This document shows, in pieces, positions 24,792 to 51,977 of a stretch of 52,433 bases of DNA. Below the pieces are notes generated by a model, which searched no databases, was not told the origin of the DNA, and saw nothing but the letters and a program-made list of their open reading frames with translations. This stretch comes from Escherichia virus TH23. Location of the stretch: the sequence record MT446397.1; one strand, written 5' to 3'. A program made the position numbers and the translations under genes. The first letter of the stretch is position 1. Each line of letters opens with the position of its first letter.

Positions 24792-26837
24792 TTACATCCA
24801 TGCCGAGTAGTTGGCACTTGGGCCGGAGAATTCGATTGCAACCATATCTGAAACGTTATCGACACAATCGTCGTGTCCAGTACCACTACCCAAAGAAGTG
24901 AATCCAAGTATTTCACGTCTAACGTGGTCAATGTGTTCATGACCAGCAGGGAAGAATATCCTCTTTTGAGAGAAATATGGGATTGCGTTAAGGAATCGAG
25001 TTACCTTGTCATTACCGTTAATGCCATCGCGAGGCAGTGGTAAGACTCGGACACTCCCATCTCTAATAAATTGTTGGTTCAAGAACTGTCCAGCAGACTT
25101 ATCTTCCATGTACAAAGCACGAGGAATGCAGCCTACATATTTCAAATCCAACTTATTGCATTTATTCCAGAAGTCGATAATAGCAGTCTTGAGTTCTGGA
25201 GTTTCAAACTTACCGAGCATGATATCTAAACAATAAACATCACGCTCTTTAGTCACGCCCCAATGCTTAAGGACCGAATAGTCAGAATAAGACTTGGCAG
25301 TAGATGCCGTGTCAGCAGTAATGAAACTTCTAACTATGCGACTTCTGTCGAAAGCGTCTGGCTCATACTCTTGCCACCAATCTTCTTTAACAAGGCCATG
25401 ACCTTGGGCAGACGGGTCGCCAGCATACTGTGAGTTGTATGTGTATGGGTTGGACTCCTTCATTGCCTCCAAAGATTCTAAACTCTTACGTGAGGGCCAC
25501 AATGCAGACTTCTCTTCTTTCCTGTTCAAATCATAGAGAATAGGGATAGCATGAGTGTAGTTCTGCTTCTTAATTAATTTGTCGTACCACTGAGCACTGC
25601 CAACACCTTTCTCAATAATCGCTGGGATGTTGAGATAATGATATTTATCAGAGGAACCACCACGGAGTATATAGCCAACTAAATCTTGGTCATGAACTCG
25701 CTGCATGATGATAACCATTGGAGTACGAGAGCACTTAATTTGGTTTCCACGAGAATCGGTTATGCACCCATCATTGGCAAGACGGGACATAAAGGTGTTA
25801 TCAAAGCGGTCGTTGATTTCTGCTCGAACTGTGTCAGAGTAGGCATCCTTAGGTTTGATAACGTCATCCACCACAAAGCAACCAGAGTAGTTTGCAACAA
25901 GAAGTCCAGCACCTTTACCAGTTAATTTACCACCAGTAGGTACTGCGTGCATAACTCCAGCTTTGGTCGTACCCCAGCGTTCAAGGGAACGTTTGTTGGG
26001 GTCGATTCTCACCTTTGGGAATATGCGTTGGAATAGTGGGTCCAGCATTACTGCGCGGATGTAACCGCTCGATTCCAATACAACGTCTTCTGCATAGGAG
26101 GTGATGATGTTGTGGCTTGATTCATTGTGGCAAAATGAATACAGTGGTAGTGCAATACTCATAAGCTGAGTCTTGGAATGTCGTGGTGGAATGGTGACAA
26201 TTAGTCGGTCAATCTCACCGTCAACAACTTTCTGACCTACTTTGAATATTACATCGTGAAAGTCTTGAGACTGGAATGGGAATCCCATTTGAATATGGAA
26301 CTGCCATTTACCAAATGCTTCAAAACTCTTCATCAAAACTTTACGGACTTGTTCTGCAACCTTGGCTGGGATTACAGATGGGTCAACGTTGTGTGGGTCA
26401 TAAAGGATTTTATCGACAAGCTCTTGAGTATTGTCGTGTTCAGAAGTTGGCTCTTCTAAAGTCGAACCAGCTACACGGTCTGATACCCCAGCTTGGATTC
26501 CTTTCTTCAACTCGTCGGCATACGCAGTTGAATCTTTCTTATCGCCAGAGCGAAGGCGCTCAAGTTGTGCTCGGAAAACGGAACGCAACACAGCATCGTT
26601 TTCCAGACCCTGGCCTTCTAACTCTGCTTGAATTTGTTCTTCATAGCTGTCAACTATCGCAGAGTTTTCTGAAATATATCGACGGAGCAATGGCAAAGAT
26701 AGAATGCAGAATCTTTCTCTTGAGACTTTTAATACGTCACCGTAGTGTTTGGCAAGATACGAGGCTACTGTATCATTAAACTCCGGTCCGAGGTCATCAG
26801 TCTTTGACATTGATTCGTTCTCTTTGGTTTTAATCAC
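24792..26837 (-). CDS. Terminase large subunit
   Basis: 681 aa; Walker A-like VTIPPRHSKTQL, acidic FVVDDV, C-terminal nuclease-like GTGHDDCVD; GTG start with roughly 100-aa N-terminal extension, so the true start may be downstream. Confidence 0.7.
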   Translation of the reverse strand: MIKTKENESMSKTDDLGPEFNDTVASYLAKHYGDVLKVSRERFCILSLPLLRRYISENSAIVDSYEEQIQAELEGQGLENDAVLRSVFRAQLERLRSGDKKDSTAYADELKKGIQAGVSDRVAGSTLEEPTSEHDNTQELVDKILYDPHNVDPSVIPAKVAEQVRKVLMKSFEAFGKWQFHIQMGFPFQSQDFHDVIFKVGQKVVDGEIDRLIVTIPPRHSKTQLMSIALPLYSFCHNESSHNIITSYAEDVVLESSGYIRAVMLDPLFQRIFPKVRIDPNKRSLERWGTTKAGVMHAVPTGGKLTGKGAGLLVANYSGCFVVDDVIKPKDAYSDTVRAEINDRFDNTFMSRLANDGCITDSRGNQIKCSRTPMVIIMQRVHDQDLVGYILRGGSSDKYHYLNIPAIIEKGVGSAQWYDKLIKKQNYTHAIPILYDLNRKEEKSALWPSRKSLESLEAMKESNPYTYNSQYAGDPSAQGHGLVKEDWWQEYEPDAFDRSRIVRSFITADTASTAKSYSDYSVLKHWGVTKERDVYCLDIMLGKFETPELKTAIIDFWNKCNKLDLKYVGCIPRALYMEDKSAGQFLNQQFIRDGSVRVLPLPRDGINGNDKVTRFLNAIPYFSQKRIFFPAGHEHIDHVRREILGFTSLGSGTGHDDCVDNVSDMVAIEFSGPSANYSAWM

Positions 26838-27015
26838 AATCCACTAATGGCTGAGTTTGCACGGGATTGATGCGAATGATGTTGCCCAAACTAGAATCAG
26901 CTTTTAAAATGAGCCGATTTAGCGGCATGAATGAATCACAGATAGGACATTGTTGGGTGATAAAATCATCCTCTGCCACTTCGTAATGGCAGTTACTACA
27001 TTGAATTGTGCGCAT
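26830..27015 (-). CDS. Small zinc-ribbon protein
   Basis: 61 aa with CSNC...CPIC. Confidence 0.3.
   Translation of the reverse strand: MRTIQCSNCHYEVAEDDFITQQCPICDSFMPLNRLILKADSSLGNIIRINPVQTQPLVDCD
26833..26850 (-). promoter_or_regulatory. Conserved intergenic motif copy (candidate phage promoter), upstream of the terminase gene
   Basis: Minus strand CCATTAGTGGATTGTGAT; matches the family consensus ACATTAGTTGGATGTGA. Confidence 0.3.
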
Positions 27016-27069
27016 AAGCGACTCCGAATAAGATAGGAGGCCAGATAGCCTCCCTATTATGCGTGCCGC

Positions 27070-27399
27070 TTAATATTTAATATCGCTCCAATCCATATCT
27101 TTAAAGAAATCTTCAAAATACTGCTGGGTAGAACCAACAACCACCACAATCTTAAATGGCAGTATCAGCGGCTTTACAGCCGACATTAAATCTTCGCGCC
27201 CACGCTTGATACGTTCGACGTTCTTGATTGTATTTTCACCACGAGGAAGCATGAAAACGATAACATCCGCACCTGTTTCATTGCGCGTTGCAAGTGCACG
27301 GGTGAGATAAGTACCACCGCCAGTTGAAGTGACGGTGGATTTCAAATATGCAAACTTGACTTTGCGATTATTTACAACAACAGGTGAGGACAGTTTCAT
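27070..27399 (-). CDS. Hypothetical protein
   Basis: 109-aa ORF with Shine-Dalgarno, between dUTPase and terminase. Confidence 0.3.
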   Translation of the reverse strand: MKLSSPVVVNNRKVKFAYLKSTVTSTGGGTYLTRALATRNETGADVIVFMLPRGENTIKNVERIKRGREDLMSAVKPLILPFKIVVVVGSTQQYFEDFFKDMDWSDIKY

Positions 27400-27428
27400 T
27401 CAGATAGGTTCCAAATAGTTACTAATTA

Positions 27429-27881
27429 CTAAACTCGTCCAGTTGAACCAAACCCACCTTCACCACGAACAGTGGAATTTAAGTGGTCAACTTCAACGAA
27501 ATGGTGTTGAGTAGCTTTACTAACTTGCACTTGACAAACACGTTCGCCTGGTTGAATAACAAAGGCTGTGTCCGAGTCGTTGTGCAGCTTAACCATAAGA
27601 TTACCGCGATAGTCGGAATCCAGAATGCCTGTGCAGTTTGCAAGGCGAATACCAGACTTAAAGCCGTGACCAGAACGGCTATGCACTTTGAGTTCGTATC
27701 CAATTGGTACTTCGAACTGGAGGCCAGTATCGACAACAACAGAAGAGCCGGGATTGATAACAACAGTGGTATCGGATACAGTACAAACATCAGCAGCAGC
27801 AGCGCCAGCTGTAGCATACACAGGTAATTTCGCATTAGGGTGTACTCGTTTAACTGCAACAACTTGGGTCATACAAGACAT
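27429..27881 (-). CDS. dut: dUTPase (trimeric Dut family)
   Basis: 150 aa; LPVYAT.GAAA.D, SRSG, GILDSDYRGNLMV, IQPGERVCQ and C-terminal RGEGGFGSTGR motifs match E. coli Dut as recalled. Confidence 0.88.
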   Translation of the reverse strand: MSCMTQVVAVKRVHPNAKLPVYATAGAAAADVCTVSDTTVVINPGSSVVVDTGLQFEVPIGYELKVHSRSGHGFKSGIRLANCTGILDSDYRGNLMVKLHNDSDTAFVIQPGERVCQVQVSKATQHHFVEVDHLNSTVRGEGGFGSTGRV

Positions 27882-27883
27882 GG

Positions 27884-28510
27884 TTATTTCTCTACTTGAT
27901 AAGTTATGCGTTCAATCCAATTGAACACTTTGAATACGGAATCGTCCACCTTACCATCAATTAGATGTTCATCCACTGTTACGCGGGTAGGTGTATTTGG
28001 GAGGTTGATGTATCTGCGAGAATCGCCCGTGAAATCAAAACCATCACGATGCAAACGCACAATGATGACGAAATCATAAGCAGACTCAACGGCAACGACT
28101 TCATCACCAAAACCGCCATCGGGATAAATGACATTAATAACGCCACCCATACGCCCCGTGAGTTCTTCAACACGAGCAGCTTCAACCTTACCGAAGTAGT
28201 CTTGTCCGTAGCGAGGTTTATAGATGTCTTCACTAGCGTGAATAAGAGCTTGACGAGGTGTTCTGCCACCAAGACCTGCAAGGGAGATAGAGTCTTTGAG
28301 GTCACGGTCCGAAGCATAGTGGATAAACTTGTCCACATCGACTTGAAAGTGTTTGGCAGTATGCTCATACAGTGCATCCTTAAACTGGTGTTTAGTGAAT
28401 CGGCGCTTACCGAGAAAGTATGATTCCTCGGCAGCAACTATCTTGTTGGCAATTGTGTCTTTACCACAGCCAGGTGGGCCATTAAGAATGACAGCTAAAC
28501 GCTTAATCAA
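27884..28510 (-). CDS. P-loop nucleotide kinase (dNMP kinase-like)
   Basis: Walker A ILNGPPGCGKDT; listed ORF start overlaps the upstream gene by about 110 nt, and a TTG at 28510 preceded by GAGG is the likelier start. Confidence 0.45.
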   Translation of the reverse strand: MIKRLAVILNGPPGCGKDTIANKIVAAEESYFLGKRRFTKHQFKDALYEHTAKHFQVDVDKFIHYASDRDLKDSISLAGLGGRTPRQALIHASEDIYKPRYGQDYFGKVEAARVEELTGRMGGVINVIYPDGGFGDEVVAVESAYDFVIIVRLHRDGFDFTGDSRRYINLPNTPTRVTVDEHLIDGKVDDSVFKVFNWIERITYQVEK

Positions 28511-29258
28511 AACTTTCCTCGCTCTTGTCTGTGCGAAGGCGAACCAAAGAAGGGAAGCGGAATTTACCAGCTTCTGTCTTCTCACGATATCGAACTTGCA
28601 TAATCGAACCAACTAGCTCGTTACGATGTTCCCACAACCACTTACGGATTGCGGTGTTTGATTCTGGAATACCGTGGTCTGCCAGACAATCTTTCACCAT
28701 TGAGCCAGCACTGCCGTAGTTAGAAGAGATAGAGCCACACATACCTTTGAGAGCACCAGTACCTTCTTTCATACCAGTAATCTTCACATCGGCGTATTTG
28801 TATGGTACAATCTTCCACCACTTACCTTTTGCATCTCGGACGATAATACCCTCATGACCAAGCGCCAGATATTTATCCATCAATGCCTTAAGGTTTTCAT
28901 TGCTTGGGTCCTTGCACCAGCCGATGTACAGGCGTGGGTCAACAGCACCATCACTCAACTCATACACGTTTTCTTGAGTTAGTGCGACCGTAGGCGGGTC
29001 AATACGACCGAGGATGCTAGAAGTCTCATTCCAACTATTACGGAATATCTCAGCATCTCTGAACTCCAGGTGCGATAAATGAGGTAAGGGTTTGGAATTA
29101 CGACTCCAGACACCACCTGCTTTATTACGGATAGCTCGAATTCCGTCAATCTTGATGAAGAGTTCGCAGCGTCCTTTGATTTGGCAGTCTGGGTCTTCCC
29201 AATCATGAGCATGGGCCTTCGTATATTTTGTACCATCATCGAGAAGCTTAATAGTCAT
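28503..29258 (-). CDS. Small ATP-dependent DNA ligase-like nucleotidyltransferase
   Basis: 251 aa; motif I KIDGIR, motif IV-like EGIIVRDAKGKW. Confidence 0.5.
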   Translation of the reverse strand: MTIKLLDDGTKYTKAHAHDWEDPDCQIKGRCELFIKIDGIRAIRNKAGGVWSRNSKPLPHLSHLEFRDAEIFRNSWNETSSILGRIDPPTVALTQENVYELSDGAVDPRLYIGWCKDPSNENLKALMDKYLALGHEGIIVRDAKGKWWKIVPYKYADVKITGMKEGTGALKGMCGSISSNYGSAGSMVKDCLADHGIPESNTAIRKWLWEHRNELVGSIMQVRYREKTEAGKFRFPSLVRLRTDKSEESFD

Positions 29259-29772
29259 TAAGATTCAGTCTCAAGTATTCTCGGACAGCATTCTTACGTC
29301 CGATTTTGGTTTTAGGGATTGGGTCAATCTTGGCGAGTTTGCACTTAGCAATTTGCTCGTCATCTTTCAATTTGGCGAATGCAATACACTTCTTCTCTAT
29401 GACTGCATCTCTACGAGATACCCCATATCGTTCCATGTATGTTATGATGCCATGACAATCATGACACAACAGTTCCAAATCTTCCGGCTGAACCAATAGA
29501 AGGTTGTCCACAAAACGGTGAAGGTCTTCCAGCTTAAGGAGTCCTCCAACCTGTTTCTTGTGGTTCACTTCAATCTCTTTCAACTTATACAGTTTCTTAC
29601 AGTGATAGCACTGAATGTGGAATATTGGTTTGTTGGATGTACCAACTTTCAACGCCACACGTCGAGCCTGGATAAGAGATAGCTTGCTTGGATGTTTAGA
29701 CCAAACACTGCGAATAGCAGACTGGAGCCAAGAAACAAACTTGGCTTCCGTACCGCAATAACCGTAAGCCAT
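29248..29772 (-). CDS. HNH endonuclease
   Basis: 174 aa; CYHCKK...HDCHG cysteine/histidine pattern. Confidence 0.45.
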   Translation of the reverse strand: MAYGYCGTEAKFVSWLQSAIRSVWSKHPSKLSLIQARRVALKVGTSNKPIFHIQCYHCKKLYKLKEIEVNHKKQVGGLLKLEDLHRFVDNLLLVQPEDLELLCHDCHGIITYMERYGVSRRDAVIEKKCIAFAKLKDDEQIAKCKLAKIDPIPKTKIGRKNAVREYLRLNLNDY

Positions 29773-29783
29773 TTCAACTCCAA

Positions 29784-30845
29784 TTATTTCTGGAGATACT
29801 CTGCATGAGGGATTATACGGTTCTCTTTAAGATGGAATCGGTCGATGACACCTTTATAGTGCCACAAGCGAACGAGGTTTCCATCATCAATTTGGTGATG
29901 CATGTACACGAGTCGGCCAACTTTGAGAAGTTCTTCTTCCCAACCGTCTCCGAATCGCATGATAAATGCACCAATAACTTTCTTCAAACCTTCTGCATAA
30001 GAAGTGGTCTTATCCAAAAGTTCGAAAGATTCGACAGCACCGACACCGCTTCGACGGAAGTATGTTTCTCCAGCCTTGGCACCAGTCTTGTAAATCTTCT
30101 CTTCCAGAACACCACAACCCATAACGTTATCCGTTGAGTCGCCGATAAGAAGTTGATGCAAGAAGAATTTAGGGCCACAGCCTTTGACTTCTTTCTTCTT
30201 AGATTTACCGTTGTCTTTGATAATTAATTTGAGTTCACCATAATCCTTCGGGATTACAATCTTCTCACCAATGTTCTGAGATTCACGTTCCCATTGGTAG
30301 TGCTTGATTACTGGACCAGTGTCGCCGAATTGTCCGATTTGGCGCAAGTCTTTGTCAAGCGACGCAATCCAAACTTCATCATATGTGCACGGACCAATAC
30401 GCGTGAGGCTCTTAATCTCATTACGTTTACCCATTGTTGCTTCGTATTCATGACGGGCGAATACAGCCAGAAGGTCATCTGCTTCCAGACCCTTCATCCA
30501 CATTCCGTTCCATGCAACCATGAGATGTGCTTTCGCATTCTTAAGGTTTTCTGGACGCCATACGCCATCACGGTTGCCCTTATAATCAGGAGCAAATTCG
30601 TTGCGCATGGTTTTGGATGGTGAAATGAAAGTAATTACTTCTGTAGCACCAGCACGTTTGGCGAGGAATTCCATTTTAGAATCCATCGACATTTGAATCT
30701 TAGCAAAGTTAATATCTTCGGGGTCTTTGCCGTGCTCTTCAGCAGCACAGTGGCTGAATGCAACCATGTCGCCGTCTACCAGCAACAATACTCGTTTCTT
30801 ACTCACTTTGGTAAGCTCCAAACTAAAGGCTCCCGAAGGAGCCAA
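29784..30845 (-). CDS. 5'-3' exonuclease / flap endonuclease (T5 D15 / T4 RNase H family)
   Basis: 353 aa; LLLVDGDMVAF and EADDLLA acidic motifs. Confidence 0.65.
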   Translation of the reverse strand: MAPSGAFSLELTKVSKKRVLLLVDGDMVAFSHCAAEEHGKDPEDINFAKIQMSMDSKMEFLAKRAGATEVITFISPSKTMRNEFAPDYKGNRDGVWRPENLKNAKAHLMVAWNGMWMKGLEADDLLAVFARHEYEATMGKRNEIKSLTRIGPCTYDEVWIASLDKDLRQIGQFGDTGPVIKHYQWERESQNIGEKIVIPKDYGELKLIIKDNGKSKKKEVKGCGPKFFLHQLLIGDSTDNVMGCGVLEEKIYKTGAKAGETYFRRSGVGAVESFELLDKTTSYAEGLKKVIGAFIMRFGDGWEEELLKVGRLVYMHHQIDDGNLVRLWHYKGVIDRFHLKENRIIPHAEYLQK

Positions 30846-30851
30846 TTATAA

Positions 30852-41493: not shown

Positions 41494-41510
41494 TTCAATT
41501 CCAACTAATG
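41494..41510 (-). promoter_or_regulatory. Conserved intergenic motif copy (candidate phage promoter)
   Basis: Minus strand CATTAGTTGGAATTGAA, at the upstream edge of the 40.9-41.7 kb island. Confidence 0.3.
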
Positions 41511-41540
41511 TTTCAGAATTATTCCAATATTCCAAACAAA

Positions 41541-41609: not shown

Positions 41610-41634
41610 GCCTTTCTTCCCTAAGAGGTCAGAA

Positions 41635-41650
41635 TCAAATCCCACTAATG
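41635..41650 (-). promoter_or_regulatory. Conserved intergenic motif copy (candidate phage promoter)
   Basis: Minus strand CATTAGTGGGATTTGA; shares a 14-nt identity (actaatgtttcaga) with the 41494 copy. Confidence 0.3.
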
Positions 41651-41720
41651 TTTCAGACTAAAGCCGAAGGCCAATGCGAGTACAAAACCCGCTTGGCACT
41701 TCGAAGAAACCCGCCTGGAA

Positions 41721-41924: not shown

Positions 41925-41937
41925 CTCAGCTTCGATT

Positions 41938-42781: not shown

Positions 42782-42789
42782 TGATGAAG

Positions 42790-43185: not shown

Positions 43186-43460
43186 TATTTACCCTTTAAT
43201 GCATCGTTTAAAGTGTTGTTCAACAGTGTGTTGAGTTCATCAAGCTCGTCAAATGCTGCCTGAGCTTTGTTAACTTCGTCAACAAGTAGTGCTCGAAGGA
43301 CTGCATGCTCAACAAGCACCCATCCGTTAATACAGTCGATGAAAACTTTAACTTTATCAACTGGAGCATTTAAATCAAAGGCCGACAAGTCGGATTTGGC
43401 ATTGTCCAACTTTCCTTTTGCCTTACTTAGTTCAACAGGAACTTGGTCTATAGAAATCAT
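43185..43460 (-). CDS. Hypothetical coiled-coil protein
   Basis: 91-aa ORF whose stop overlaps the next start. Confidence 0.3.
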   Translation of the reverse strand: MISIDQVPVELSKAKGKLDNAKSDLSAFDLNAPVDKVKVFIDCINGWVLVEHAVLRALLVDEVNKAQAAFDELDELNTLLNNTLNDALKGK

Positions 43461-43690
43461 TGAAAATTATTTCCACTAGGGTGAATGGTTAATTTGAAGG
43501 ATACTAATTCCCTATTGATTGAGGTTGTTCCTAGAACTGTTGCCTCAAACAACATGGATTTGGAAGTTTCCTTACCTACACGTTCCAAGTATTTTACAAC
43601 TCGGTCGTGAATTACTGCCCATTGGCGATATTCGCAATCGGATTCCAGCAGGTATTGAACTCCATCAATGGTAAATTCGGATGACGTCAT
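43457..43690 (-). CDS. Hypothetical protein
   Basis: 77-aa ORF. Confidence 0.3.
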   Translation of the reverse strand: MTSSEFTIDGVQYLLESDCEYRQWAVIHDRVVKYLERVGKETSKSMLFEATVLGTTSINRELVSFKLTIHPSGNNFQ

Positions 43691-44037
43691 TTAACTTCCT
43701 TACAATAGGTTGATAACAATGGAAATTTGGCATGAAAGAAGTCAATGTCACGATAAATCTGTAGCACCAAACGTTCCTCAGCGTCAACACCAACTAAGGC
43801 CAGCTTACTGCTCTGTGTATTGTAGAACACTGTTGACATTGGATTAGGATTTCCATTATCTGGAATCTCAATCCATGTACCTTCGTGCAAAGAAATTGTT
43901 GCAATGAGTGGCTGGCTCATTGTAATTGTTTCAACGGACATTTTGTACCCGCCACACTGGAAGCTGCGAACAGATGCTTCTGATTTGAATGCGAATACTC
44001 CAAACAAAATTGTGAGTGCAATGTATAAAGTTTTCAT
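43687..44037 (-). CDS. Secreted/periplasmic small protein (signal peptide)
   Basis: 116 aa; MKTLYIALTILFGVFAFKSEA signal-peptide-like N-terminus. Confidence 0.35.
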   Translation of the reverse strand: MKTLYIALTILFGVFAFKSEASVRSFQCGGYKMSVETITMSQPLIATISLHEGTWIEIPDNGNPNPMSTVFYNTQSSKLALVGVDAEERLVLQIYRDIDFFHAKFPLLSTYCKEVK

Positions 44038-44092
44038 AAATGCTCCAGTGATAATTAATCGAGGCCACTCGAAGTGGAATGACCTCTGTTAA

Positions 44093-44995
44093 TTACAGCT
44101 TCTTAATAAGCTCTGCGGATTTGCTTGCGGCAACTTTCATTTCATCGCGTGCGGCTTTAGTGATTGATGCCTTGTCCACGCGAATATTGCAGTTGCCAAT
44201 TGCAATCTTGCCATCTGCTGTTGGTGCAAGCTGCTGTAAGTCAAGCATTTGCTCCAGCTTTTGCAGAAGAATACGCTGCGCTTCGATTGCATTTTGGATA
44301 TTTAAAGTTTCCATAACTGCTCTTACCTTTCTTGAAAATGTTCCGGTTAATGCGAGGCGTACTTGTAGACCTTTAACGTTTCCATAGTCTACATTTACTT
44401 TATTGGCTGGTGAATGTGGATGTTTGTACACGTTTGTTACAGTTGCCCAATTATTATTTACCCAAATAACATCACCAACTTCCACATCTTTTCCGAGAAC
44501 ATCTTCTTCATCGGATACTTTCTGCTTCTTAGATTCTTCTACAGGAAGGAATACTGGATTTATCTGATTAGGGAACTCAATTGTTGGTGAGTTTGACATT
44601 GGTCCTGGGTTAACAATATAAACAACCCTACTCTTAACAAAGTCGAAGTACCCTTTTTCGTGGTGCAGACGAACATCCGAGCCATAATCTTCTACGCGAG
44701 TAATGTAGAAGAAGTTCACACCGTAGCTCAGTGTTTCACCTGCTACAACCATACAAGCTTTTACTGGAGTAACCTTTGGCAACTCTTTATATGTACCAAT
44801 GTTACATAAAATTTCAACAGCCTGCATATTCTCCAGATTGAAGTATCCCTGTTTTGTGTGGTTTATTTGCACACTGTCTCTGAGTTGAATAACGTCAGCT
44901 ACAGGATATTCTTCTCCCTCATGAACTATTACATCACCTTTCTTAACCAGATTGGCTGGAATCTTTACAACCTTAATTCCCATGATATTCCTCAC
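44093..44995 (-). CDS. Hypothetical protein
   Basis: 300-aa ORF, largest early gene. Confidence 0.4.
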   Translation of the reverse strand: MRNIMGIKVVKIPANLVKKGDVIVHEGEEYPVADVIQLRDSVQINHTKQGYFNLENMQAVEILCNIGTYKELPKVTPVKACMVVAGETLSYGVNFFYITRVEDYGSDVRLHHEKGYFDFVKSRVVYIVNPGPMSNSPTIEFPNQINPVFLPVEESKKQKVSDEEDVLGKDVEVGDVIWVNNNWATVTNVYKHPHSPANKVNVDYGNVKGLQVRLALTGTFSRKVRAVMETLNIQNAIEAQRILLQKLEQMLDLQQLAPTADGKIAIGNCNIRVDKASITKAARDEMKVAASKSAELIKKL

Positions 44996-45105
44996 GCATT
45001 GCTGAACAGTGCTTACACACCCAAAAGGTTACATAATCGTTTTCATGCGAAATTTCCCAATTATGTAGCCCTATAAAACATAAAATTTTCATAGGGCATC
45101 TCCAA

Positions 45106-45483
45106 TTAGAATGGAATATCGTCGTCGAAGTCTTTCGGCTCGTTCGGATTGTAGTTACTGTTCTGCGTCTGTTGCTGAATAGGTGCTTGCTGTTGTGCAG
45201 CAGGTTGCTGGCGTTGCTGTTGCTGTTGAGCAGCAGCTTGAGGTTGAGCTTTGGCTTTAGCTTTCTCTTCACGCTTACGCATCATTTCATCAACTTGTTC
45301 TTGGGTCATGATGGTGAGTGCCAGCGAGGTAAATTCATTACCATTGGCTTGCTTGTTCCAACCAGACACCCAATACCAGATTCCGTCAACGTTAATACGT
45401 CCACGAACGTCAGGATGTTTTGGGTCTTTCTTAAAGCCATTGGAACCGATGATGCCAGTGTTTACGTCTGAATATTGTGCCAT
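45106..45483 (-). CDS. Small protein with Q/P/A-rich linker and C-terminal DFDDDIPF (SSB-tail protein; minimal SSB or SSB-tail decoy)
   Basis: 125 aa; last eight residues equal the E. coli SSB C-terminal peptide; N-terminal region about 70 aa (GRINVDGIWYWVSGW); conserved motif about 80 nt upstream. Confidence 0.5.
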   Translation of the reverse strand: MAQYSDVNTGIIGSNGFKKDPKHPDVRGRINVDGIWYWVSGWNKQANGNEFTSLALTIMTQEQVDEMMRKREEKAKAKAQPQAAAQQQQQRQQPAAQQQAPIQQQTQNSNYNPNEPKDFDDDIPF

Positions 45484-45554
45484 GATTAAGATTCTCTTAA
45501 GTTAATTTACGGTTTAAGTTTCAGCGACATTGCTAACCACGGAATAGCTTTGTC

Positions 45555-45572
45555 TCTCACATCCAACTAATG
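45555..45572 (-). promoter_or_regulatory. Conserved intergenic motif copy (candidate phage promoter)
   Basis: Minus strand CATTAGTTGGATGTGAGA, about 80 nt upstream of the SSB-tail gene start. Confidence 0.35.
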
Positions 45573-45731
45573 TTGAATTAATCAGGAACACTCAATGAAT
45601 GCTCCTTGTTAATTTAACGCGCCAGTTTATATTCCTGCTTGTAATAGCAGCAGGTTGGCAAAGCCTATAACAATCGTAATTATAACAACGCTAATAGTAA
45701 GTGTCAGTATTAGGTATTTAATATTCAATCC

Positions 45732-46019
45732 TCACATCACCTTCGATACAGGAATTGGGTCAATGTTTGATTCAGGTTTATACCAACTAACTTCACCAGA
45801 ATCTTTCACAAGTTCCCAATTATCGGAGAATGTACGATAGAGTAGAACATTGTTATCATCAATAACGACAAAACCCAAAGGAGATTGAATATACGCACCT
45901 AATGTACCACTGTTTCGAGGAACTCCGTCACCACGACCTGCGACGATTTTGTACTTCTTGCCTTTGGTAAAGCTGGAATTAGTTTCACCAACATATTTAA
46001 CGATTGAATTCTTGTTCAT
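45732..46019 (-). CDS. Hypothetical protein
   Basis: 95-aa ORF with GGAGAA Shine-Dalgarno. Confidence 0.35.
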   Translation of the reverse strand: MNKNSIVKYVGETNSSFTKGKKYKIVAGRGDGVPRNSGTLGAYIQSPLGFVVIDDNNVLLYRTFSDNWELVKDSGEVSWYKPESNIDPIPVSKVM

Positions 46020-46230
46020 TGCTCTAGTTTCTCCAAAGCTGCCAAAACTGAATCACCAGAACCGCTAATTACAAGCGACTCTCCTGGAAGATTGTAGGAT
46101 ATATAAGAGAACGTCCATTTTACAACAGTTCTCTGATATTAGGAGCTGTATTTATCAGACAGCTCTACATCTTGTCTTGCATCATTTAATAAGAACTCCT
46201 GTCCATTGACATTGAGTCTTTTAAACATTT

Positions 46231-46533
46231 CTATATAGTTCTTACCCACGGTTTCATCTTCTCCCATTTAGACAAACCACCTTCAAGACTAAAGATTCGG
46301 TTACAGCCAGATTCATCTTTAATGACAAATTGAGTTCCTGTCAGTTGAATTGGCTCAAGTGCGCCAAACAACACTTTAGGTTTTGACAAGCTGGTGGCAA
46401 GAACCACATAAACTTTGCTTGGGCAAATATCAAAAGCAAAGTCGCGAGTGTAAACTAAGTCACCAACTTTCAAATATGCTGGCAACAGGCGACCTGTGGC
46501 TGGGTCACGTTGTAAACGAGTACGTTGTTTCAT
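46231..46533 (-). CDS. Hypothetical protein
   Basis: 100-aa ORF. Confidence 0.35.
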   Translation of the reverse strand: MKQRTRLQRDPATGRLLPAYLKVGDLVYTRDFAFDICPSKVYVVLATSLSKPKVLFGALEPIQLTGTQFVIKDESGCNRIFSLEGGLSKWEKMKPWVRTI

Positions 46534-46596
46534 AAATGCTCCAAGTTAATTAATAATATTCAGCAACCACTCTCATTATAAGAATGGTTGAGGAAA

Positions 46597-46827
46597 TTAT
46601 TTGACTTCTTTCCAAGTCCAAACACTGCCGTTTAATGGGACACTTTCACCAATGCTCCAGTAGGGTCTGCCATTGGCAGCCACTCGGTCCCCAACATTCG
46701 AAACAATTATTCGAGGGTCGATTCCGTGTTTTCGCTGTTTGTGGATAAGTTCTCCTTCAATCACATCTCCAACTTTTGGAGTATGTTCGGATGAAGAAGA
46801 GGATTTTATACATACAAACTTTGTCAT
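46597..46827 (-). CDS. Hypothetical protein, paralog A (NG-x-W-T-W family)
   Basis: 76 aa; shares KF.C...VGD.IEGE.I...VP.NG..WTW with the adjacent gene. Confidence 0.35.
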   Translation of the reverse strand: MTKFVCIKSSSSSEHTPKVGDVIEGELIHKQRKHGIDPRIIVSNVGDRVAANGRPYWSIGESVPLNGSVWTWKEVK

Positions 46828-47051
46828 TGTAATACACCTTGTTCACAAATGTCTGCAAACTCTGCACGATGGTCACGCTGCCATGTCCAGAATGCACCAT
46901 TCATAGGAACGACAGCACCTTTACGAAATGCTGGAGAGAACTCCTCAGCAGATTTGGTAACTTTAAATTCCAAAGGTGAAATAGCTTCACCCTCAATGAT
47001 TAGGCCAACTGGAACGTAGTCTTTGTTGGAAGCAACACATTTAAATTTCAT
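46824..47051 (-). CDS. Hypothetical protein, paralog B (NG-x-W-T-W family)
   Basis: 75 aa; tandem with 46597..46827, stop/start overlap. Confidence 0.35.
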   Translation of the reverse strand: MKFKCVASNKDYVPVGLIIEGEAISPLEFKVTKSAEEFSPAFRKGAVVPMNGAFWTWQRDHRAEFADICEQGVLQ

Positions 47052-47304
47052 GGTATAAAACTCCTAATTCAGATTCTAATTTAAATTCACGGAAGAAATC
47101 CATTGTTACAAATCGGACTTTACCTTCGTCATCAACTACGTTACAGGAAATGTCGGAGTGGACCATCCTGCCTAGCTTCAAAGCAACTTCTGAAAGATTC
47201 GCTTCGCCAGTCCCTGAGATTACACGGTAGATGCGATATGGTGTAAAGCCGCTTAAAGAGTTATTACGGCTTGGGACAATCATCATGCCTGTTTTAGTAG
47301 CCAT
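47041..47304 (-). CDS. Hypothetical protein
   Basis: Internal ATG (MATKTGMM) of the 47041..47355 ORF, preceded by GGAG. Confidence 0.35.
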   Translation of the reverse strand: MATKTGMMIVPSRNNSLSGFTPYRIYRVISGTGEANLSEVALKLGRMVHSDISCNVVDDEGKVRFVTMDFFREFKLESELGVLYHEI

Positions 47305-47400
47305 AATAACTCCAATATTAAAAGTACATGAATGCGCCAATAGTAAGTAGCACAAGTGGGAACATCAGAATACAGAATACTAATTTCTTTACGATATCCA

Positions 47401-47574
47401 TTATTTCACCAGGAAGTAGAGAACAATAGCAACACCAACACATGTAATGATTGTTGGCATATAATTATCAATTTTACGATATTTACGTTCGACTGGCTTC
47501 TTGCCTTCGATGGCATTCATCAGTTCTTGATGATTAATCTGCTGCATTAATGTGTTGAATTGCTGGTCGTTCAT
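47401..47574 (-). CDS. Unlisted small membrane protein (57 aa, C-terminal transmembrane helix)
   Basis: Hand translation: MNDQQFNTLMQQINHQELMNAIEGKKPVERKYRKIDNYMPTIITCVGVAIVLYFLVK; its ATG overlaps the upstream TGA as ATGA. Confidence 0.35.
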   Translation of the reverse strand: MNDQQFNTLMQQINHQELMNAIEGKKPVERKYRKIDNYMPTIITCVGVAIVLYFLVK

Positions 47575-47759
47575 TTTGCCTCCAGAATTTGGCTTAATGA
47601 GCTGAACACGATTTCCTCATGTTCGTCAGGTGTACATGCATTGATGTAACCAAAGTCATAACCAACAAACTTCTCTGCCCACTGCTGTAAACGAAGTAAA
47701 GAATTGAAGTACAAACTTTGCTCTACACCATTTAACTTAAAGTAGACGATGAAGTCCAT
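47571..47759 (-). CDS. Hypothetical protein
   Basis: 62-aa ORF. Confidence 0.3.
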   Translation of the reverse strand: MDFIVYFKLNGVEQSLYFNSLLRLQQWAEKFVGYDFGYINACTPDEHEEIVFSSLSQILEAK

Positions 47760-47849
47760 GATTAACCTCGGGCTTTAATGAAGTGAGGGTGAGCAGCCAT
47801 TGCCACAATTTTGTTGTGCTTGTCATTTTGAATTGCAAGCCAAACATAT

Positions 47850-47999
47850 TCAGGGTGTGCAGCAGGTTTCCAAACCAGACGCCCCCCTTTCTCCATAAAT
47901 CATCGTGTCAGCCAACATCACTGCCTTAGTTACAGTATTAACCAAAGCATGTGAAACAACACCGTCACGATTGATGTACTGATACAGTGCATAATTCAT
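47850..47999 (-). CDS. Hypothetical small protein
   Basis: Internal start of the 47850..48059 ORF just after the upstream stop; weak. Confidence 0.2.
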   Translation of the reverse strand: MNYALYQYINRDGVVSHALVNTVTKAVMLADTMIYGERGASGLETCCTP

Positions 48000-48000
48000 T

Positions 48001-48252
48001 TCAGAATCCTTTAGTGTATCCAACAGTTTTACGTAGAATGATTTCATCATTTGAACCACCTGGCTCTAATTCGATTTCGATTTCAACAACATCACTGTCT
48101 TTAAGTTTACATGCACGGCTTGAGTCATAGAATCTTACAGTGTTGTACAGACCACACTCACCCTCCACCTTAATACATTTGATAGAATTGTAAGTGAAGA
48201 TTTGACCTTCTGACAGGTCAGCAAATTTTGCACGTTTGTTGATGGTGTCCAT
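48001..48252 (-). CDS. Hypothetical protein
   Basis: 83-aa ORF. Confidence 0.35.
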   Translation of the reverse strand: MDTINKRAKFADLSEGQIFTYNSIKCIKVEGECGLYNTVRFYDSSRACKLKDSDVVEIEIELEPGGSNDEIILRKTVGYTKGF

Positions 48253-48288
48253 TATAGCTCCGAAGTTGGAGGGTTACTCCCCCCCATA

Positions 48289-48507
48289 TTAAACTGAAAT
48301 TGGCTCTTGAACTAAATCAGAAGCTGAGATTTCTTTAAACTCTTCTTCTGTAAAAGTTCTCTCATTGTCATTTAATAAAACACCAATGTTAGAATCACCA
48401 ACGAACACAGCATTTACATTAATGTCATCTTCCAAAACCTTTTGCAGATGTTCCCCACCACGCGTGAAGAAGATTGCACCATCTTCCAAATCTTTAAAAC
48501 GAGTCAT
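48289..48507 (-). CDS. Hypothetical acidic protein
   Basis: 72-aa ORF, first gene after the repeat-rich region. Confidence 0.35.
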   Translation of the reverse strand: MTRFKDLEDGAIFFTRGGEHLQKVLEDDINVNAVFVGDSNIGVLLNDNERTFTEEEFKEISASDLVQEPISV

Positions 48508-48797
48508 TTTATTCTCCTAAGTTAAAAGAAAACTCCCGTCATAACGATTGTGGAGGTCTTGTATTACCTTAATCCACCTTAAAGAATCAGGGAGTTATAT
48601 AGTATTCCTGTGTGTGCCGCCATCATGGACTTCCTAGTCTGGTGGGCGCGTTGCAATCCAGCAATAAACCACACGTTTTTCACAGGCTATATATGTGACA
48701 CACAAAGTGTCTAAAAACTACAATGATTAGCTTGGAGACATAATCTCTCTAAAATCTGTCACACAATTTCAGCAGAATTCACAGAGATTTGGTCTTA

Positions 48798-48814
48798 TTC
48801 ACATACAACTAATG
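48798..48814 (-). promoter_or_regulatory. Conserved intergenic motif copy (candidate phage promoter)
   Basis: Minus strand CATTAGTTGTATGTGAA. Confidence 0.3.
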
Positions 48815-48859
48815 ATAAATGAACATGCTTAATTGCAACTAACTCATCTGCCAAATAGA

Positions 48860-49715
48860 CGAATTTTGTCACAATTAAACATGCGTCATTAATTACAGGT
48901 TTACTCCCACCTTGAATGTATTTGGCACATTAAGATTGGAGCAAGCAGGTACGGAAAACCGACCATGTACAGCATAATAAAACTAATTAAATAAAGGGTT
49001 TTATCCCAATATTGTCACAATATTTACATGCGATGATAAAGCCTTCGCTTGGCTGGAAGCCAGTATTCATGCGGGTTGCAAGAATATTGGGTCAATACTG
49101 ATACAGCTATTACATGTGAAATTGGCACAAATACTGTTACAAAATTAACATGCCGGATTGGTAGACAATTGTATCTTCGAGGTGATTAGTCCTCTAACAA
49201 TTCTGCCACATTCTAACATGCCAATTTGTAGCAATATTTACATGCCATACTGTGACGCAATTGTCACAATATTTGTTGCTCAAAATCGGGGCGGGCTACG
49301 GGATTAGTTTCGCGGCTTTGCTCCGACTCTTCTCTTCTTTCGAATTAAGATAGAAAGAAAGAAGCATGTCCAAAAGTTCCAGTCTTGCCAAAGTTATCTC
49401 CCGGCTTGTGGGTGGGCCTTTATAATAGGAGATGGAGCAATATTGTCGCAATTGAACATGCTTTAGTTGAAGAACAGTTTCGAATGATAATCCTACTTCA
49501 CACATGGTTGCTGGAACTTTGTCTGGCCAAAGACAGGGAGTTCAATGATTGCCACATCATTACAACGCTGTGTGTTTAGTTGACATGCTGAAATGTTTCT
49601 AGAATGATTTCAACATGACATGCGGAATACTTCTCCGTATTCTGTTACTTCACATCCAACTAATGTCGAATATTGAAACAATATTACATGCAGCAATATT
49701 GCTTGAATATTGGGA
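48860..49715. repeat. Cluster of at least nine degenerate copies of an AT-rich 20-mer (consensus TTGTCACAATATTTACATGC), mostly one orientation, one palindromic unit TGTGACgcaattGTCACA
   Basis: Copies near 48866, 49011, 49122, 49201, 49225, 49249-49280, 49441, 49550 and 49676; related copies near 199-270 and 435-470. Confidence 0.6.
49649..49665 (-). promoter_or_regulatory. Conserved intergenic motif copy (candidate phage promoter)
   Basis: Minus strand CATTAGTTGGATGTGAA, about 75 nt downstream of the RNA polymerase terminator. Confidence 0.35.
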
Positions 49716-49737
49716 ATTAAAGGATTTAATTAATAAA

Positions 49738-49774
49738 GAATAAAGAAAGGGCCATCACCTTTCGATGACAGCCC
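49738..49774 (-). terminator. Intrinsic terminator immediately downstream of the RNA polymerase gene
   Basis: Minus strand: stop codon, gaaaca, GGGCUGUCAUC-GAAA-GGUGAUGGCCC (about 11-bp stem, GNRA loop), then UUUCUUUAUUC. Confidence 0.55.
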
Positions 49775-49782
49775 TGTTTCTC

Positions 49783-51897
49783 TTATTGACAGAAGTAGTA
49801 AGCGTGTTCGCTCATCAGAAGCTCTTCGGTTACGATGTTCTCATGATACATCTGAATGCCACCAAGTTGCTTAGACAGATTCTCGAATTGATTGTTGGTT
49901 ACGAAGATTTCAACATATGCTGCACGAATAACTTCCATCATTTTAGGAGCATCAGCTAAGCAGCAACGGAAACAATCATGGATTGAAGTAAAGCCACGAA
50001 GACCAGCTTCTTTAGCTTTGACTGCAACAGTACGAGCAACCAATGCGTCAATACCTTGAATGTAGTTAACAACGAAGGTACGTTTGAATTCCTCTTTAGT
50101 TGGATTGGACTCACGAATGGTCCAAGGCTTATTCTCCTGAATCTGACCAAAGATGACACGAGTTTGAGAGTCAACACGAATGCTGAATGCATCACAAACA
50201 TCACGAGATGGGAAGCAAGGTTTCATTACAACTTGACCATCAGTGTGCTTATATGTGATGTACTCTTTGTTGAGTTCAACACAACGAGCAAATGCAGCAT
50301 CAGCAGCTTTCTCGATGAACATGTTAATCTTAGCACCCAATGCGTTATGGATTGCTTCAACACAAAGTTCAGCAAATGCTTCGGCTTTCTCCATAGGAAT
50401 CTGGAGAGCTTCTGTCATGTATGCGGTGAAATCAGAAGAACCAGTCAATGCAGCTTTACCACCACCATATTGGATAGCCATGTATGGAGTTTTGATAAAC
50501 TTACGACCAGCTTTCGGATTCAAGAATTCATCCATAATTTCAGCGGATGGTTTCATTGAAGAACGGTCAAGCAACTTCAACAGTTCACGAAGAGATAACT
50601 GGTATGGGTCAGATGCTTTAGTCTCAGAATCAACCAGACCTGTAGCACGAGCCATTTCCATGTTACCAGCAATGAATGCCAAGTATTGGGTACCAGAACA
50701 TTTAGCATCTAAGCCAAAGCCTACACGAGAATCACACTCACCTGTAGTCTCAAACTTGAACCAATCCAGAGCCAGACGAACATAAGTGAATGGCTTAGAA
50801 GGACGCTCACCTTTAGGCATGTTCAGCATACGAGCCAAAGAACCAGCAGGATTCTGTGCAACATAAGTTAAACGTTTTGCAGAAGTCCAGTCTCCACCAG
50901 CAATATCTTCCAGCTCAAGCATGAACATGTTGTATGCCAGAGTTGTTGAGCCATCATCATTAAACTTGCTCACAGTGTTCTCAACATTGTGGGAATACAG
51001 GCAACGAGCAAAGTCGGATGATTGTGGGTTAGGACCAGCACATGCTACATGATACAAACGACCACGGTTATCAGCAAAGTAGTCAGAGAACAGAGTGTCC
51101 TGCCCAACCATTGCTACAGCATTGTTCCAAACATGGAGTTCAGTCTGGATTGCTTCTGGCATCTGTAAGCCACCAAAGGTACGTTGTTCTAACATGGAAG
51201 AGATAACCTTAACCATTGTTGCATCAACGTGATATTCAGTATCTTGCAGGAATTCGATTGCAGCTTTCAGAGTCTTGGATGGCTTAACTTTGCCACCTTT
51301 AACGAAAGGCTTGCGACGAGATTCAGTTGTTACACGCTCAGTGAATGGAACTGAGGTATCTTTGGTTGTAACCAGCTCAACCCATGCATCAGTCATCTGG
51401 AACGATTTGTCCTCGTTCATGGTGATGAAACCGAAGTGCTTAGCTAAACCAATGAGGTTGATAGCTGGGTCAACATAGTGCATTGCTTTCAGGTCGTTGT
51501 TATAACGGTTGGCATCAGCAATAGAAGCAGAAGCCAGCTCGACCATTGCAATGGCTGGGACAACATCATCACGAGTGAATGACGTCATCATCTTGAAGAT
51601 TGCAAGAGCAGCAATAGCACAGGTCTGAGGCTGCATGTAATTCTGTTTCTCTTTGGCACGGTATACCAGAGCCGTGATAGCAGGGACAACGGATTTGATA
51701 GTTTGAGTTGAGATAGTTGTCATTTTGCGAGTCTCCAAGTTAGTTTCGGTTTTAGTTTCGGATTGTGTAGCAGCAGTGATTTCGTCAACCATTTGGTTGC
51801 AACGGTCCATCGTATCAAGCACGTCTTTCCAACCGTGGCCTTCTTCTTTTAAGCGAGCGCCATCAGCAGCCAGTGCGCGATATTCTTCGTTAGTCAT
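49783..51897 (-). CDS. Single-subunit T7-like DNA-dependent RNA polymerase (small, 704 aa)
   Basis: Motif A FGLDAKCSGTQYLAF (T7 FDGSCSGIQHF), motif B RKFIKTPYMAIQYGGG (T7 RSVTKRSVMTLAYGS), motif C FTSIHDCF...ADAPKM (T7 ALIHDSF...ADAANL); GGAG Shine-Dalgarno. Confidence 0.85.
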   Translation of the reverse strand: MTNEEYRALAADGARLKEEGHGWKDVLDTMDRCNQMVDEITAATQSETKTETNLETRKMTTISTQTIKSVVPAITALVYRAKEKQNYMQPQTCAIAALAIFKMMTSFTRDDVVPAIAMVELASASIADANRYNNDLKAMHYVDPAINLIGLAKHFGFITMNEDKSFQMTDAWVELVTTKDTSVPFTERVTTESRRKPFVKGGKVKPSKTLKAAIEFLQDTEYHVDATMVKVISSMLEQRTFGGLQMPEAIQTELHVWNNAVAMVGQDTLFSDYFADNRGRLYHVACAGPNPQSSDFARCLYSHNVENTVSKFNDDGSTTLAYNMFMLELEDIAGGDWTSAKRLTYVAQNPAGSLARMLNMPKGERPSKPFTYVRLALDWFKFETTGECDSRVGFGLDAKCSGTQYLAFIAGNMEMARATGLVDSETKASDPYQLSLRELLKLLDRSSMKPSAEIMDEFLNPKAGRKFIKTPYMAIQYGGGKAALTGSSDFTAYMTEALQIPMEKAEAFAELCVEAIHNALGAKINMFIEKAADAAFARCVELNKEYITYKHTDGQVVMKPCFPSRDVCDAFSIRVDSQTRVIFGQIQENKPWTIRESNPTKEEFKRTFVVNYIQGIDALVARTVAVKAKEAGLRGFTSIHDCFRCCLADAPKMMEVIRAAYVEIFVTNNQFENLSKQLGGIQMYHENIVTEELLMSEHAYYFCQ

Positions 51898-51959
51898 GAT
51901 AAGTCTCCAATTGATTATGATTTAACTGAAACGGATTAGACTTGCGTAGCCTATTCATA

Positions 51960-51977
51960 ATCACAACCAACTAATGG
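51960..51977 (-). promoter_or_regulatory. Conserved intergenic motif copy (candidate promoter), upstream of the RNA polymerase gene
   Basis: Minus strand CCATTAGTTGGTTGTGAT, about 70 nt upstream of the polymerase ATG. Confidence 0.3.

Follow-up and report, generated by a model that had tools for sequence, protein, structure and literature searches.

A 17-nt motif repeated along the minus strand of the Escherichia virus TH23 genome is, with a probability of roughly 80%, the promoter used by a single-subunit RNA polymerase (RNAP) of the T7 family that the phage itself encodes. We favour this reading, which is argued from sequence comparison, because the motif is the top-ranking non-coding word, is conserved at syntenic positions, occurs in lineage-specific variants, corresponds neither to sigma-70 promoters nor to a common RNA structure, and accompanies a gene for an RNAP with a predicted T7 fold. 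The window, meaning the whole stretch of 52,433 nt that was analysed (MT446397.1), is a complete Carltongylesvirus (Chaseviridae) genome whose minus strand carries every gene. Over the 7.4 kb compared (45000–52433) it is a 100% match to Escherichia virus TH33.

Distribution of the motif within the genome

Matches to ACATTAGTTGGATGTGA were counted at up to three mismatches, with 100 shuffles as background. Eight matches were obtained, every one on the minus (coding) strand (P0 to P7 in Table 1), against 0.23 expected and a maximum of 2 in shuffled sequence; none of the 100 shuffles gave eight. When only the 9-nt core was searched with at most one mismatch, 22 matches fell on the coding strand versus 7 on the opposite strand. 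An unbiased 11-mer search of the non-coding DNA ranked the motif as its top word and returned no second repeated, oriented motif. The motif is non-palindromic and is found in one orientation only. Its information profile places the conserved block at positions 2–17, with G16 present in 54 of 55 sites.

Table 1. Motif copies and associated features in the window
Feature	Sequence	Position	Strand	Remarks
RNAP gene, single-subunit T7 family		49783..51897	-	704 aa; Pfam RNA_pol, catalytic motifs, fold match
Intrinsic terminator-like hairpin		49748..49775	-	right after RNAP stop codon; 12-bp stem, then U-rich tail
P0	CCATTAGTTGGTTGTGA	51961..51977	-	63 nt upstream of RNAP ATG
P1	ACATTAGTTGGATGTGA (perfect copy)	49650..49666	-	82 nt past terminator; GJ1 'putative phage promoter 1'
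P2	TCATTAGTTGTATGTGA	48799..48815	-	GJ1 promoter 2
P3	ACATTAGTTGGATGTGA (perfect copy)	45557..45573	-	73 nt ahead of SSB gene; GJ1 promoter 3
P4	ACATTAGTGGGATTTGA	41635..41651	-	GJ1 promoter 4
P5	ACATTAGTTGGAATTGA	41495..41511	-	GJ1 promoter 5
P6	ACATTAATTGGATGTGA	39538..39554	-	77 nt ahead of 112-aa ORF; GJ1 promoter 7
P7 (doubtful)	GCATTATTTGGAAGTGA	31847..31863	-	inside 81-aa ORF; GJ1 promoter 8
P8 (weak)	CCATTAGTGGATTGTGA	26834..26850	-	4 mismatches; 23 nt ahead of terminase ATG (26810)

Seven copies are cleanly intergenic and two, P7 and P8, are weaker. Distances to the next start codon are given in Table 1 for P0, P3, P6 and P8, and range from 144 to 533 nt for the remaining copies. P1 opens a gene-poor stretch of about 1.1 kb and is kept in all genera compared. 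Stable hairpins end 2–20 nt upstream of P1, P2, P3, P4 and P6; the one at P2 is long and ends 7 nt away, while that at P4 ends only 2 nt away. P4 and P5 are separated by 140 nt. Palindromic AATATTG boxes adjoin P1 and P5, in the latter case at -20. The 81-aa ORF that contains P7 is the next after the DNA polymerase gene, and the three mismatches of this copy include a T in place of the near-invariant G7; its conservation could stem from coding constraint (A-L-V-G). P8 runs into the end of a 61-aa ORF, overlapping its final codons and its stop, and is not significant alone, as about 0.6 four-mismatch matches per strand are expected by chance (a rough estimate).

The initial annotation had listed eight copies of a conserved motif, all in gene orientation and each in an intergenic spot. 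Repetition and orientation stand against the shuffled background, and seven of the listed copies are sites with up to three mismatches, their coordinates being 0–2 nt off. The eighth, placed at 26833, is the four-mismatch variant P8, and the copy at 31847–31863 had been missed. An intergenic position holds for seven of the eight, the exception again being P8. Copies had further been noted before the RNAP and terminase genes; the former is P0, and the latter does precede the terminase at the distance tabulated, yet it is the variant that runs into the small ORF.

The RNA polymerase gene and its surroundings

As judged from sequence and structural model, the genome codes for a T7-family single-subunit RNAP. 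The protein comprises a 646-aa core and an in-frame N-terminal extension of 58 aa, matches Pfam RNA_pol (PF00940, E=2e-19), and carries a motif A (LDAKCSGTQ) and a motif C (IHDCF) that can be aligned with T7 RNAP. Its AlphaFold model (pLDDT 89.8) gave T7 and mitochondrial RNAP as the top folds in the PDB (E ~1e-18, TM ~0.55). Approximately residues 549–600, which separate the regions of motifs B and C, are conserved and rich in beta-hairpins, and this is where the specificity loop of T7 RNAP lies. The candidate specificity-loop segment is unchanged where the motif core is unchanged and diverged where the motif differs, with overall phylogeny as a confounder.

The genome begins its gene order with the RNAP gene, which falls within a direct terminal repeat of 2.3–3.2 kb; P0 is about 130 nt away from the left physical end inferred for the genome. 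The RNAP gene is followed by a strong terminator (z = -6.5 for the region) and then by the perfect copy P1. Other motif copies precede gene blocks, several of them just past stable hairpins.

Conservation and lineage-specific variants

In Carltongylesvirus, Sabourvirus, Suwonvirus, Loessnervirus and Myducvirus the syntenic spacers have diverged except at the motif, which stands out as an island of identity, and the sequences flanking the copies bear no relation to one another. Each of the eight Cleopatravirinae genomes compared has a motif-like copy ahead of its RNAP gene; in Y2 and SNUABM27 this copy is degenerate. P8 was found in GJ1, Mangalitsa, 4HA13 and Myduc and is missing from PP101, Y2 and SNUABM27.

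Where RNAP identity is 35–55%, lineage-specific variants of the motif occur, each at several intergenic sites: GCATTAGTAGGCTTTGG in genome L012, GCATTAGTTGATAATGG in L013, ACATTAGTTGAAAGTGA in L014 and TAGATTAGCTCGGATTT in L016 and L017, with L011 likewise carrying a variant. In L013 a stop codon and a Shine-Dalgarno sequence immediately flank the motif, whose ATAAT-GG fits the T7-group layout of an AT-rich block followed by a +1 G. The terminal GG of the motif is in some relatives the start of the Shine-Dalgarno sequence, 9–25 nt before the ATG. The motif was not found in ZPAH14 and Spp001 (RNAP 34% identical), and a de novo motif search of Spp001 and L015 returned local repeat arrays beside the RNAP gene with no clear dispersed candidate. 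A scan of IMG/VR for exact 16-mers gave 28 loci, about the chance number by a rough estimate, and likely relatives only among contigs of ~50–56 kb. As read from these sequences, the consensus shifts together with the RNAP lineage; this shift is inseparable from general phylogenetic divergence and would fit any phage-encoded factor.

Comparison with known promoter and RNA elements

Scans for hexamers near each copy and ahead of the RNAP gene revealed nothing consistent with a sigma-70 promoter. Sigma-70-like sites numbered 34, versus 36.2 in shuffles, and P5 alone overlaps a weak sigma-70-like pair. The 536 nt that precede the RNAP ATG contained no sigma-70-like site (at least 9/12) on the coding strand. 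The consensus sequences of sigma-54, sigma-32, sigma-E, sigma-28 and T4 middle and late promoters, compared by eye, did not fit. A search of Rfam gave no match at gathering scores, and a structured RNA element or processing site, such as an RNase III site or a riboswitch-like leader, is disfavoured since the pairing partners of the motif change from site to site and no common fold includes it.

No homology above chance was found with the T7, T3 or SP6 promoter sequences; the TTAG.TG shared with SP6 lines up only after the register is moved by 2 nt against the likely +1 and was judged to be chance. A division of the copies into two promoter classes by their next two bases (AG/AA/GA versus TT) was inconsistent at the syntenic sites of other genomes.

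Discussion

The initial annotation had considered the motif a poor fit to sigma70 and most likely a promoter of the phage polymerase, with a conserved 5' leader or processing site as its alternative. No -35/-10 hexamers with a spacing of 16–18 nt lie at a fixed distance from the motif, and its first choice is the explanation that an encoded RNAP, an oriented intergenic motif, syntenic conservation and lineage variants best support. The alternative is disfavoured, as the motif shows no consistent pairing and belongs to no Rfam family. The search through the genome and its relatives that had been suggested as a check confirmed the repeats and yielded syntenic copies in five genera.

If the motif is such a promoter, the first RNAP would be made from the first gene, which is part of the direct terminal repeat, and read-through would be halted by the strong terminator behind that gene. 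The phage RNAP could then initiate at each of P1 to P6, with weaker initiation at P8, giving long polycistronic transcripts that run rightward through the early and replication genes and, from few promoters, the late genes; P0 may serve the RNAP to amplify its own gene. Recognition would be of primary sequence in the duplex, namely the core CATTAGTTG plus TGA. Transcription probably starts at G16 of the 17-mer (window position 49651 for P1), because G16 is near-invariant and the terminal GG of some relatives opens a Shine-Dalgarno sequence at the short distance from the ATG noted above.

Promoters of the T7/T3/SP6 type, used by Autographiviridae RNAPs, are asymmetric, oriented, intergenic sequences of 17–23 bp repeated about ten times; those of the T7 group were reportedly described by Dunn and Studier in 1983 and in later work. 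The consensus here is likewise repeated, asymmetric, oriented and intergenic. Further likenesses are the order of RNAP gene, terminator and phage promoters (T7 gene 1, TE, phi1.1A/B), the place of P0 close to the left end and ahead of the early region (as with T7 phiOL), the probable +1 G, and lineage-specific variants that parallel RNAP divergence. In contrast to T7, the RNAP gene comes first and lies inside the terminal repeat, the virus is a myovirus, late-region promoters are few, the bases before the likely start are GATGT with no TATA-like block at -4 to -1, and the RNAP is ~15% identical to T7 RNAP and ~240 residues shorter. Several features speak against a promoter. The 3' part of the motif, GTGA, is not AT-rich, whereas T7, T3 and SP6 promoters have an AT-rich melting block there. 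A copy also stands upstream of the RNAP gene itself, in a region that has no sigma-70-like site, and the 26-kb late region is served by one copy, P8, which is weak and not universally conserved.

Apart from P0, no promoter-like element can be recognised before the RNAP gene, and for this reason, together with the missing sigma-70-like site, infection might start without host transcription of that gene, either from a virion-borne RNAP or from the right-hand terminal-repeat copy read from a host promoter just outside the repeat. We regard this as quite improbable. A virion-borne RNAP would be an N4-like strategy, in a myovirus. The N4 virion RNAP uses hairpin promoters. Resemblances to N4 are a phage single-subunit RNAP needed before any phage gene expression and hairpins near several copies; however, the conserved element here is linear, and the neighbouring hairpins vary in sequence and size.

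It is unlikely that the motif acts instead in RNA, as a conserved signal in 5' leaders or for processing that some factor of the phage or the host would cut or bind. In that case the hairpins upstream would stay behind as protective 3' ends, and messages downstream would gain new 5' ends. The hairpins close upstream of five copies, the placement of the motif in L013, the location of every copy on the transcribed strand, and an ACAUU compatible with the loose preference of RNase E (RN|WUU) would suit such a signal. Yet the motif nucleotides lack consistent pairing across sites, a host RNase would neither need a 17-nt signal nor drive its lineage-specific drift, and P0 lies close to the physical end of the genome, where no host promoter could be recognised upstream of it. 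Moreover, a T7-type RNAP requires promoters, and no alternative repeated, oriented motif was found.

Lineage variation would also suit any phage-encoded DNA-binding factor, so that the motif could be an operator of a phage regulator, or an element for host RNAP redirected by a phage specificity factor. The AATATTG palindromes suggest that protein-binding sites cluster near some copies, and many small early ORFs have no assigned function. We nevertheless consider both forms very unlikely: the motif is non-palindromic and strictly oriented, with a size and asymmetry like those of single-subunit RNAP promoters; a sigma-70-like pair overlaps it at P5 only, with no fixed-distance hexamers elsewhere; and no sigma-like or MotA-like gene was recognised outside the small early ORFs. 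Finally, P4 and P5 are close enough to be a local duplication, and the pre-terminase copy taken alone is within chance, but a chance repeat or a functionless remnant of duplicated intergenic cassettes is effectively refuted by the shuffles and by conservation of the motif across genera whose spacers have diverged, the copies having unrelated flanks.

That the motif is a promoter is already known as an idea, and our analysis re-finds the 2008 prediction for phiEcoM-GJ1, of which the study by Jamalludeen et al. that year (Appl Environ Microbiol 74:516) is said to be the source. We took the proposal of the GJ1 authors from the GenBank annotations of EF460875, in which identical 20-mers are labelled 'putative phage promoter 1-8'. 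The same sequence, e.g. CGACATTAGTTGGATGTGAA, occupies the corresponding syntenic sites there: GJ1 promoters 1, 2, 3, 4, 5, 7 and 8 are P1 to P7, P0 and P8 are unannotated, and GJ1 promoter 6, inside a CDS, has no counterpart in the window at up to four mismatches. Motif sites are likewise annotated as putative promoters in vB_EcoM_SA91KD (OL960574), P3 among them, so that independent annotators arrived at one prediction (EF460875, OL960574; review PMC8472413). The ICTV profile of 2022 states that chasevirus promoters 'have not yet been identified', and our literature search turned up no chasevirus with mapped transcript 5' ends, in vitro transcription data or a transcriptome.

To the earlier prediction we add the cross-lineage variants, two copies beyond the GJ1 annotation (before the RNAP and terminase genes) and the likely start at G16. 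Experimental confirmation would settle the point left open by the ICTV profile and would provide a transcription map for the whole family, which includes coliphages and the Erwinia, Pectobacterium and Proteus phages in biocontrol development. The RNAP is compact, its 646-aa core comparing with 883 aa for T7. Given this small size, the ~15% identity to T7 RNAP and the lineage-specific promoter variants, these divergent enzymes could give several mutually orthogonal polymerase-promoter pairs for expression systems.

Genome context

Over the 7.4 kb compared (45000-52433), the window matches Escherichia virus TH33 at 100% identity and MLP1, ST32, SA91KD and other Carltongylesvirus (Chaseviridae) members at about 90%. 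The minus strand carries every long ORF, and Pfam matches identify a single-subunit RNA polymerase (RNA_pol, E=2e-19), a primase/helicase, a family A DNA polymerase, the terminase large subunit, a portal protein and the major capsid protein. The window ends duplicate each other over about 433 nt (1-433 and 52001-52433, a single indel apart), so that the window represents a complete genome of about 52.0 kb in circularly collapsed form. Genomes of relatives are linear, with direct terminal repeats of 2.3-3.2 kb whose start precedes the polymerase gene by about 130-210 nt, as annotated with PhageTerm in Mangalitsa, 4HA13 and Myduc; the repeats of PYps23T were mapped experimentally (PMC8762354). 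Through alignment with these relatives, the physical left genome end (TTAAATACGGTCCCTAC...) is inferred to lie at about 52107. A single tRNA-like gene, detected by ARAGORN without an assigned anticodon, occupies the site where GJ1 and ST32 are annotated with a 95-nt tRNA-Arg.

Copies of the motif

Allowing up to 3 mismatches, ACATTAGTTGGATGTGA matches the whole window eight times, always on the coding strand, where 0.23 matches would be expected by chance and 0 of 100 shuffles attained eight. When repeated 11-mers were sought in the non-coding DNA without prior assumptions, the motif also came out first, and its 9-nt core with at most 1 mismatch occurs 22 times on the coding strand versus 7 on the other. 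The initial annotation had described eight oriented copies, all intergenic, and seven of these (P0-P6) were recovered as such, including the one ahead of the RNA polymerase gene. Its copy at 26833 (P8) does precede the terminase ATG by 23 nt, but as a 4-mismatch variant overlapping the end of a small ORF. The eighth match, P7, was absent from its list.

Positions of the motif copies and associated features (window coordinates unless a contig is named)
Feature	Position	Strand	Remark
P0	51961	minus	intergenic
P1	49650	minus	intergenic
P2	48799	minus	intergenic
P3	45557	minus	intergenic
P4	41635	minus	intergenic
P5	41495	minus	intergenic
P6	39538	minus	intergenic
P7	31847	minus	within ORF; near-invariant G7 replaced by T
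P8	26834-26850	minus	4 mismatches
RNA polymerase gene	49783-51897	minus	
Polymerase N-terminal extension	51724-51897		58 aa; own ribosome-binding site
Terminator	49775-49748	minus	12-bp stem, U tail; immediately 3' of polymerase gene
AATATTG box at P1	49686-49692		
AATATTG box at P5	41531-41537		
P3-to-SSB start leader	45484-45556		
Palindromic boxes	49442-53, 49260-71, 49121-32, 49011-22, 48865-76		AATATTGTGACAATATT type
Similar boxes	52197-52234, 433-444		either side of inferred terminal-repeat boundary
tRNA-like gene	38081-38150	minus	
ZPAH14 hairpin repeats	L009 2766, 2796, 2916, 3509, 4721, 6798, 9192, 11610	coding	

Conservation across genera

The polymerase-to-terminase region was compared in GJ1, Mangalitsa, 4HA13, PP101, Y2, SNUABM27 and Myduc, whose polymerases are 66-95% identical to that of the window. 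In all seven genomes, CATTAGTTG-N5-TGA recurs at syntenic sites: ahead of the polymerase gene, past this gene and its terminator, ahead of the SSB gene, behind the ArdA cluster, and ahead of a conserved ORF of about 115 aa. The P8 copy was not found in PP101, Y2 or SNUABM27. When three syntenic spacers were aligned, the motif stood out as an island of identity in diverged surroundings, which together with the shuffles rules out a chance repeat. Information is high over positions 2-17 in the profile of 55 sites; T4, T5, A6 and G10 are present in 55/55 and G16 in 54/55. Searching the genome and its relatives, as the initial annotation had suggested, found the motif over-represented here and syntenic across genera.

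Two further elements adjoin particular copies. In every genus examined, P1 and P5 have an AATATTG box at -19/-20 relative to the motif (17/55 sites overall, against a 10% background), which could be a regulator site beside a subset of the putative promoters. A block in the leader that separates P3 from the SSB start codon, GCAATGTCGCTGAAACTTAAACCGTAAATTAAC, is conserved between genera and includes two occurrences of AACTTAA; by analogy with T4 gene 32, which is autoregulated, it may be an SSB translational operator.

Variants in distant relatives and the polymerase

Contigs of more distant polymerase homologues carry variants of the motif, on the coding strand at several intergenic sites: nnTTAGTTGGGnnTGA in L011 (polymerase 55% identical), ACATTAGTTGAAAGTGA in L014, a Hafnia alvei chromosome (52%), GCATTAGTAGGCTTTGG in L012 (51%), GCATTAGTTGATAATGG in L013 (39%), and TAGATTAGCTCGGATTT in L016 and L017 (37% and 35%). 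The motif was not found in Aeromonas phage ZPAH14 or Spp001 (34%). ZPAH14 has a small repeated hairpin between genes, GGCTC-(3-4 nt)-GAGCC followed by AAAAG, which may be that lineage's own promoter or RNA-end element. Polymerase homologues of 35-55% identity are located in bacterial chromosomes or integrase-bearing contigs (L014; L011 18330-19304; L017 18480-19592), and therefore temperate or integrated relatives seem to exist in a family supposed to be strictly lytic.

In the polymerase itself, motif A (LDAKCSGTQ) and motif C (IHDCF) can be aligned to T7 RNAP. An AlphaFold model built from 61 homologues (pLDDT 89.8) has T7 RNAP and mitochondrial RNAPs as its top PDB matches (E ~1e-18, TM ~0.55, 13-15% identity). 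Residues ~549-600 form a beta-hairpin-rich segment that separates the regions of motifs B and C, the location of the specificity loop in T7 RNAP. This segment is near-invariant across genera having the common motif core and diverged in L012, L013, L016 and L017, that is, where the motif differs. The first 58 residues extend the protein in frame, include a linker modelled with low confidence, and are missing from most homologues. A second ribosome-binding site and ATG mark where the conserved 646-aa core begins; at the position of the extension, 4HA13 has a small ORF of its own.

Layout and proposed transcription

A perfect motif copy lies 82 nt past the polymerase terminator. The same succession is known from T7, in which gene 1 is followed by the terminator TE and the promoters phi1.1A/B. 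P1, P2, P3, P4 and P6 are each preceded by a stable hairpin that ends 2-20 nt away, which fits terminator-promoter or 3'-end-protection modules. In the proposed scheme the polymerase gene would be expressed before the others, its terminator would halt read-through, and the phage enzyme would start at P1-P6, to a weak extent at P8 and perhaps also at P0, transcribing long polycistronic units; late genes are probably reached via read-through. A scan of the coding strand over the 536 nt preceding the polymerase ATG gave no sigma-70-like site scoring 9 of 12 or better. GJ1 has an annotated sigma-70 site, TTGACG-18-TATTAT, immediately beyond the left edge of the terminal repeat; in the window this site is degenerate.

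In L013 and L017, 9-25 nt separate the motif end from start codons and the terminal GG opens the Shine-Dalgarno GGAG, so transcripts must start at or before that G. By transfer, G16 is the likely +1 in the window; the bases preceding it are not AT-rich.

Past the polymerase gene, a gene-poor stretch of about 1.1 kb (about 48510-49780) contains repeated palindromic boxes and GCATGT words, and comparable iteron-like arrays adjoin the polymerase gene in the distant relatives L011, L015, L016 and L017. The box arrays are candidate elements of a replication origin or of a signal at the repeat junction; the primary origin of T7 is just past gene 1.

Interpretation of the motif

We consider the motif to be the promoter of the phage polymerase, with a probability of roughly 80%; the first of the readings offered in the initial annotation is supported, on computational grounds. 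The upstream hairpins and the bias towards the coding strand would fit an RNA-level leader or processing signal, but this reading is disfavoured: the motif has no common pairing across sites, an Rfam search gave no matches, and P0 lies close to the genome end. Moreover, a T7-type enzyme requires promoters, and the non-coding word search offered no alternative candidate. A regulator operator or a site for redirected host polymerase is likewise disfavoured, as the motif is asymmetric and hexamers do not accompany it, in line with the poor sigma70 fit noted initially. The variant pattern argues against a conserved host reader (sigma-70, RNase E) and for a co-evolving phage-encoded one, although on its own it does not distinguish the polymerase from other phage gene products, since the whole phage gene set diverges in parallel.

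The promoter reading is already a published prediction in the public record. GenBank EF460875 (phiEcoM-GJ1) holds eight 'putative phage promoter' features with the sequence of the window motif (e.g. CGACATTAGTTGGATGTGAA), seven of which correspond one-to-one with P1-P7, and SA91KD has three annotated putative promoters credited to Jamalludeen et al. 2008. Neither transcript mapping nor biochemistry was found in the literature for any family member. The counterparts of P0 and P8 are without annotation in GJ1; to that annotation the present analysis adds these two copies, the cross-lineage series of variants and a likely +1.
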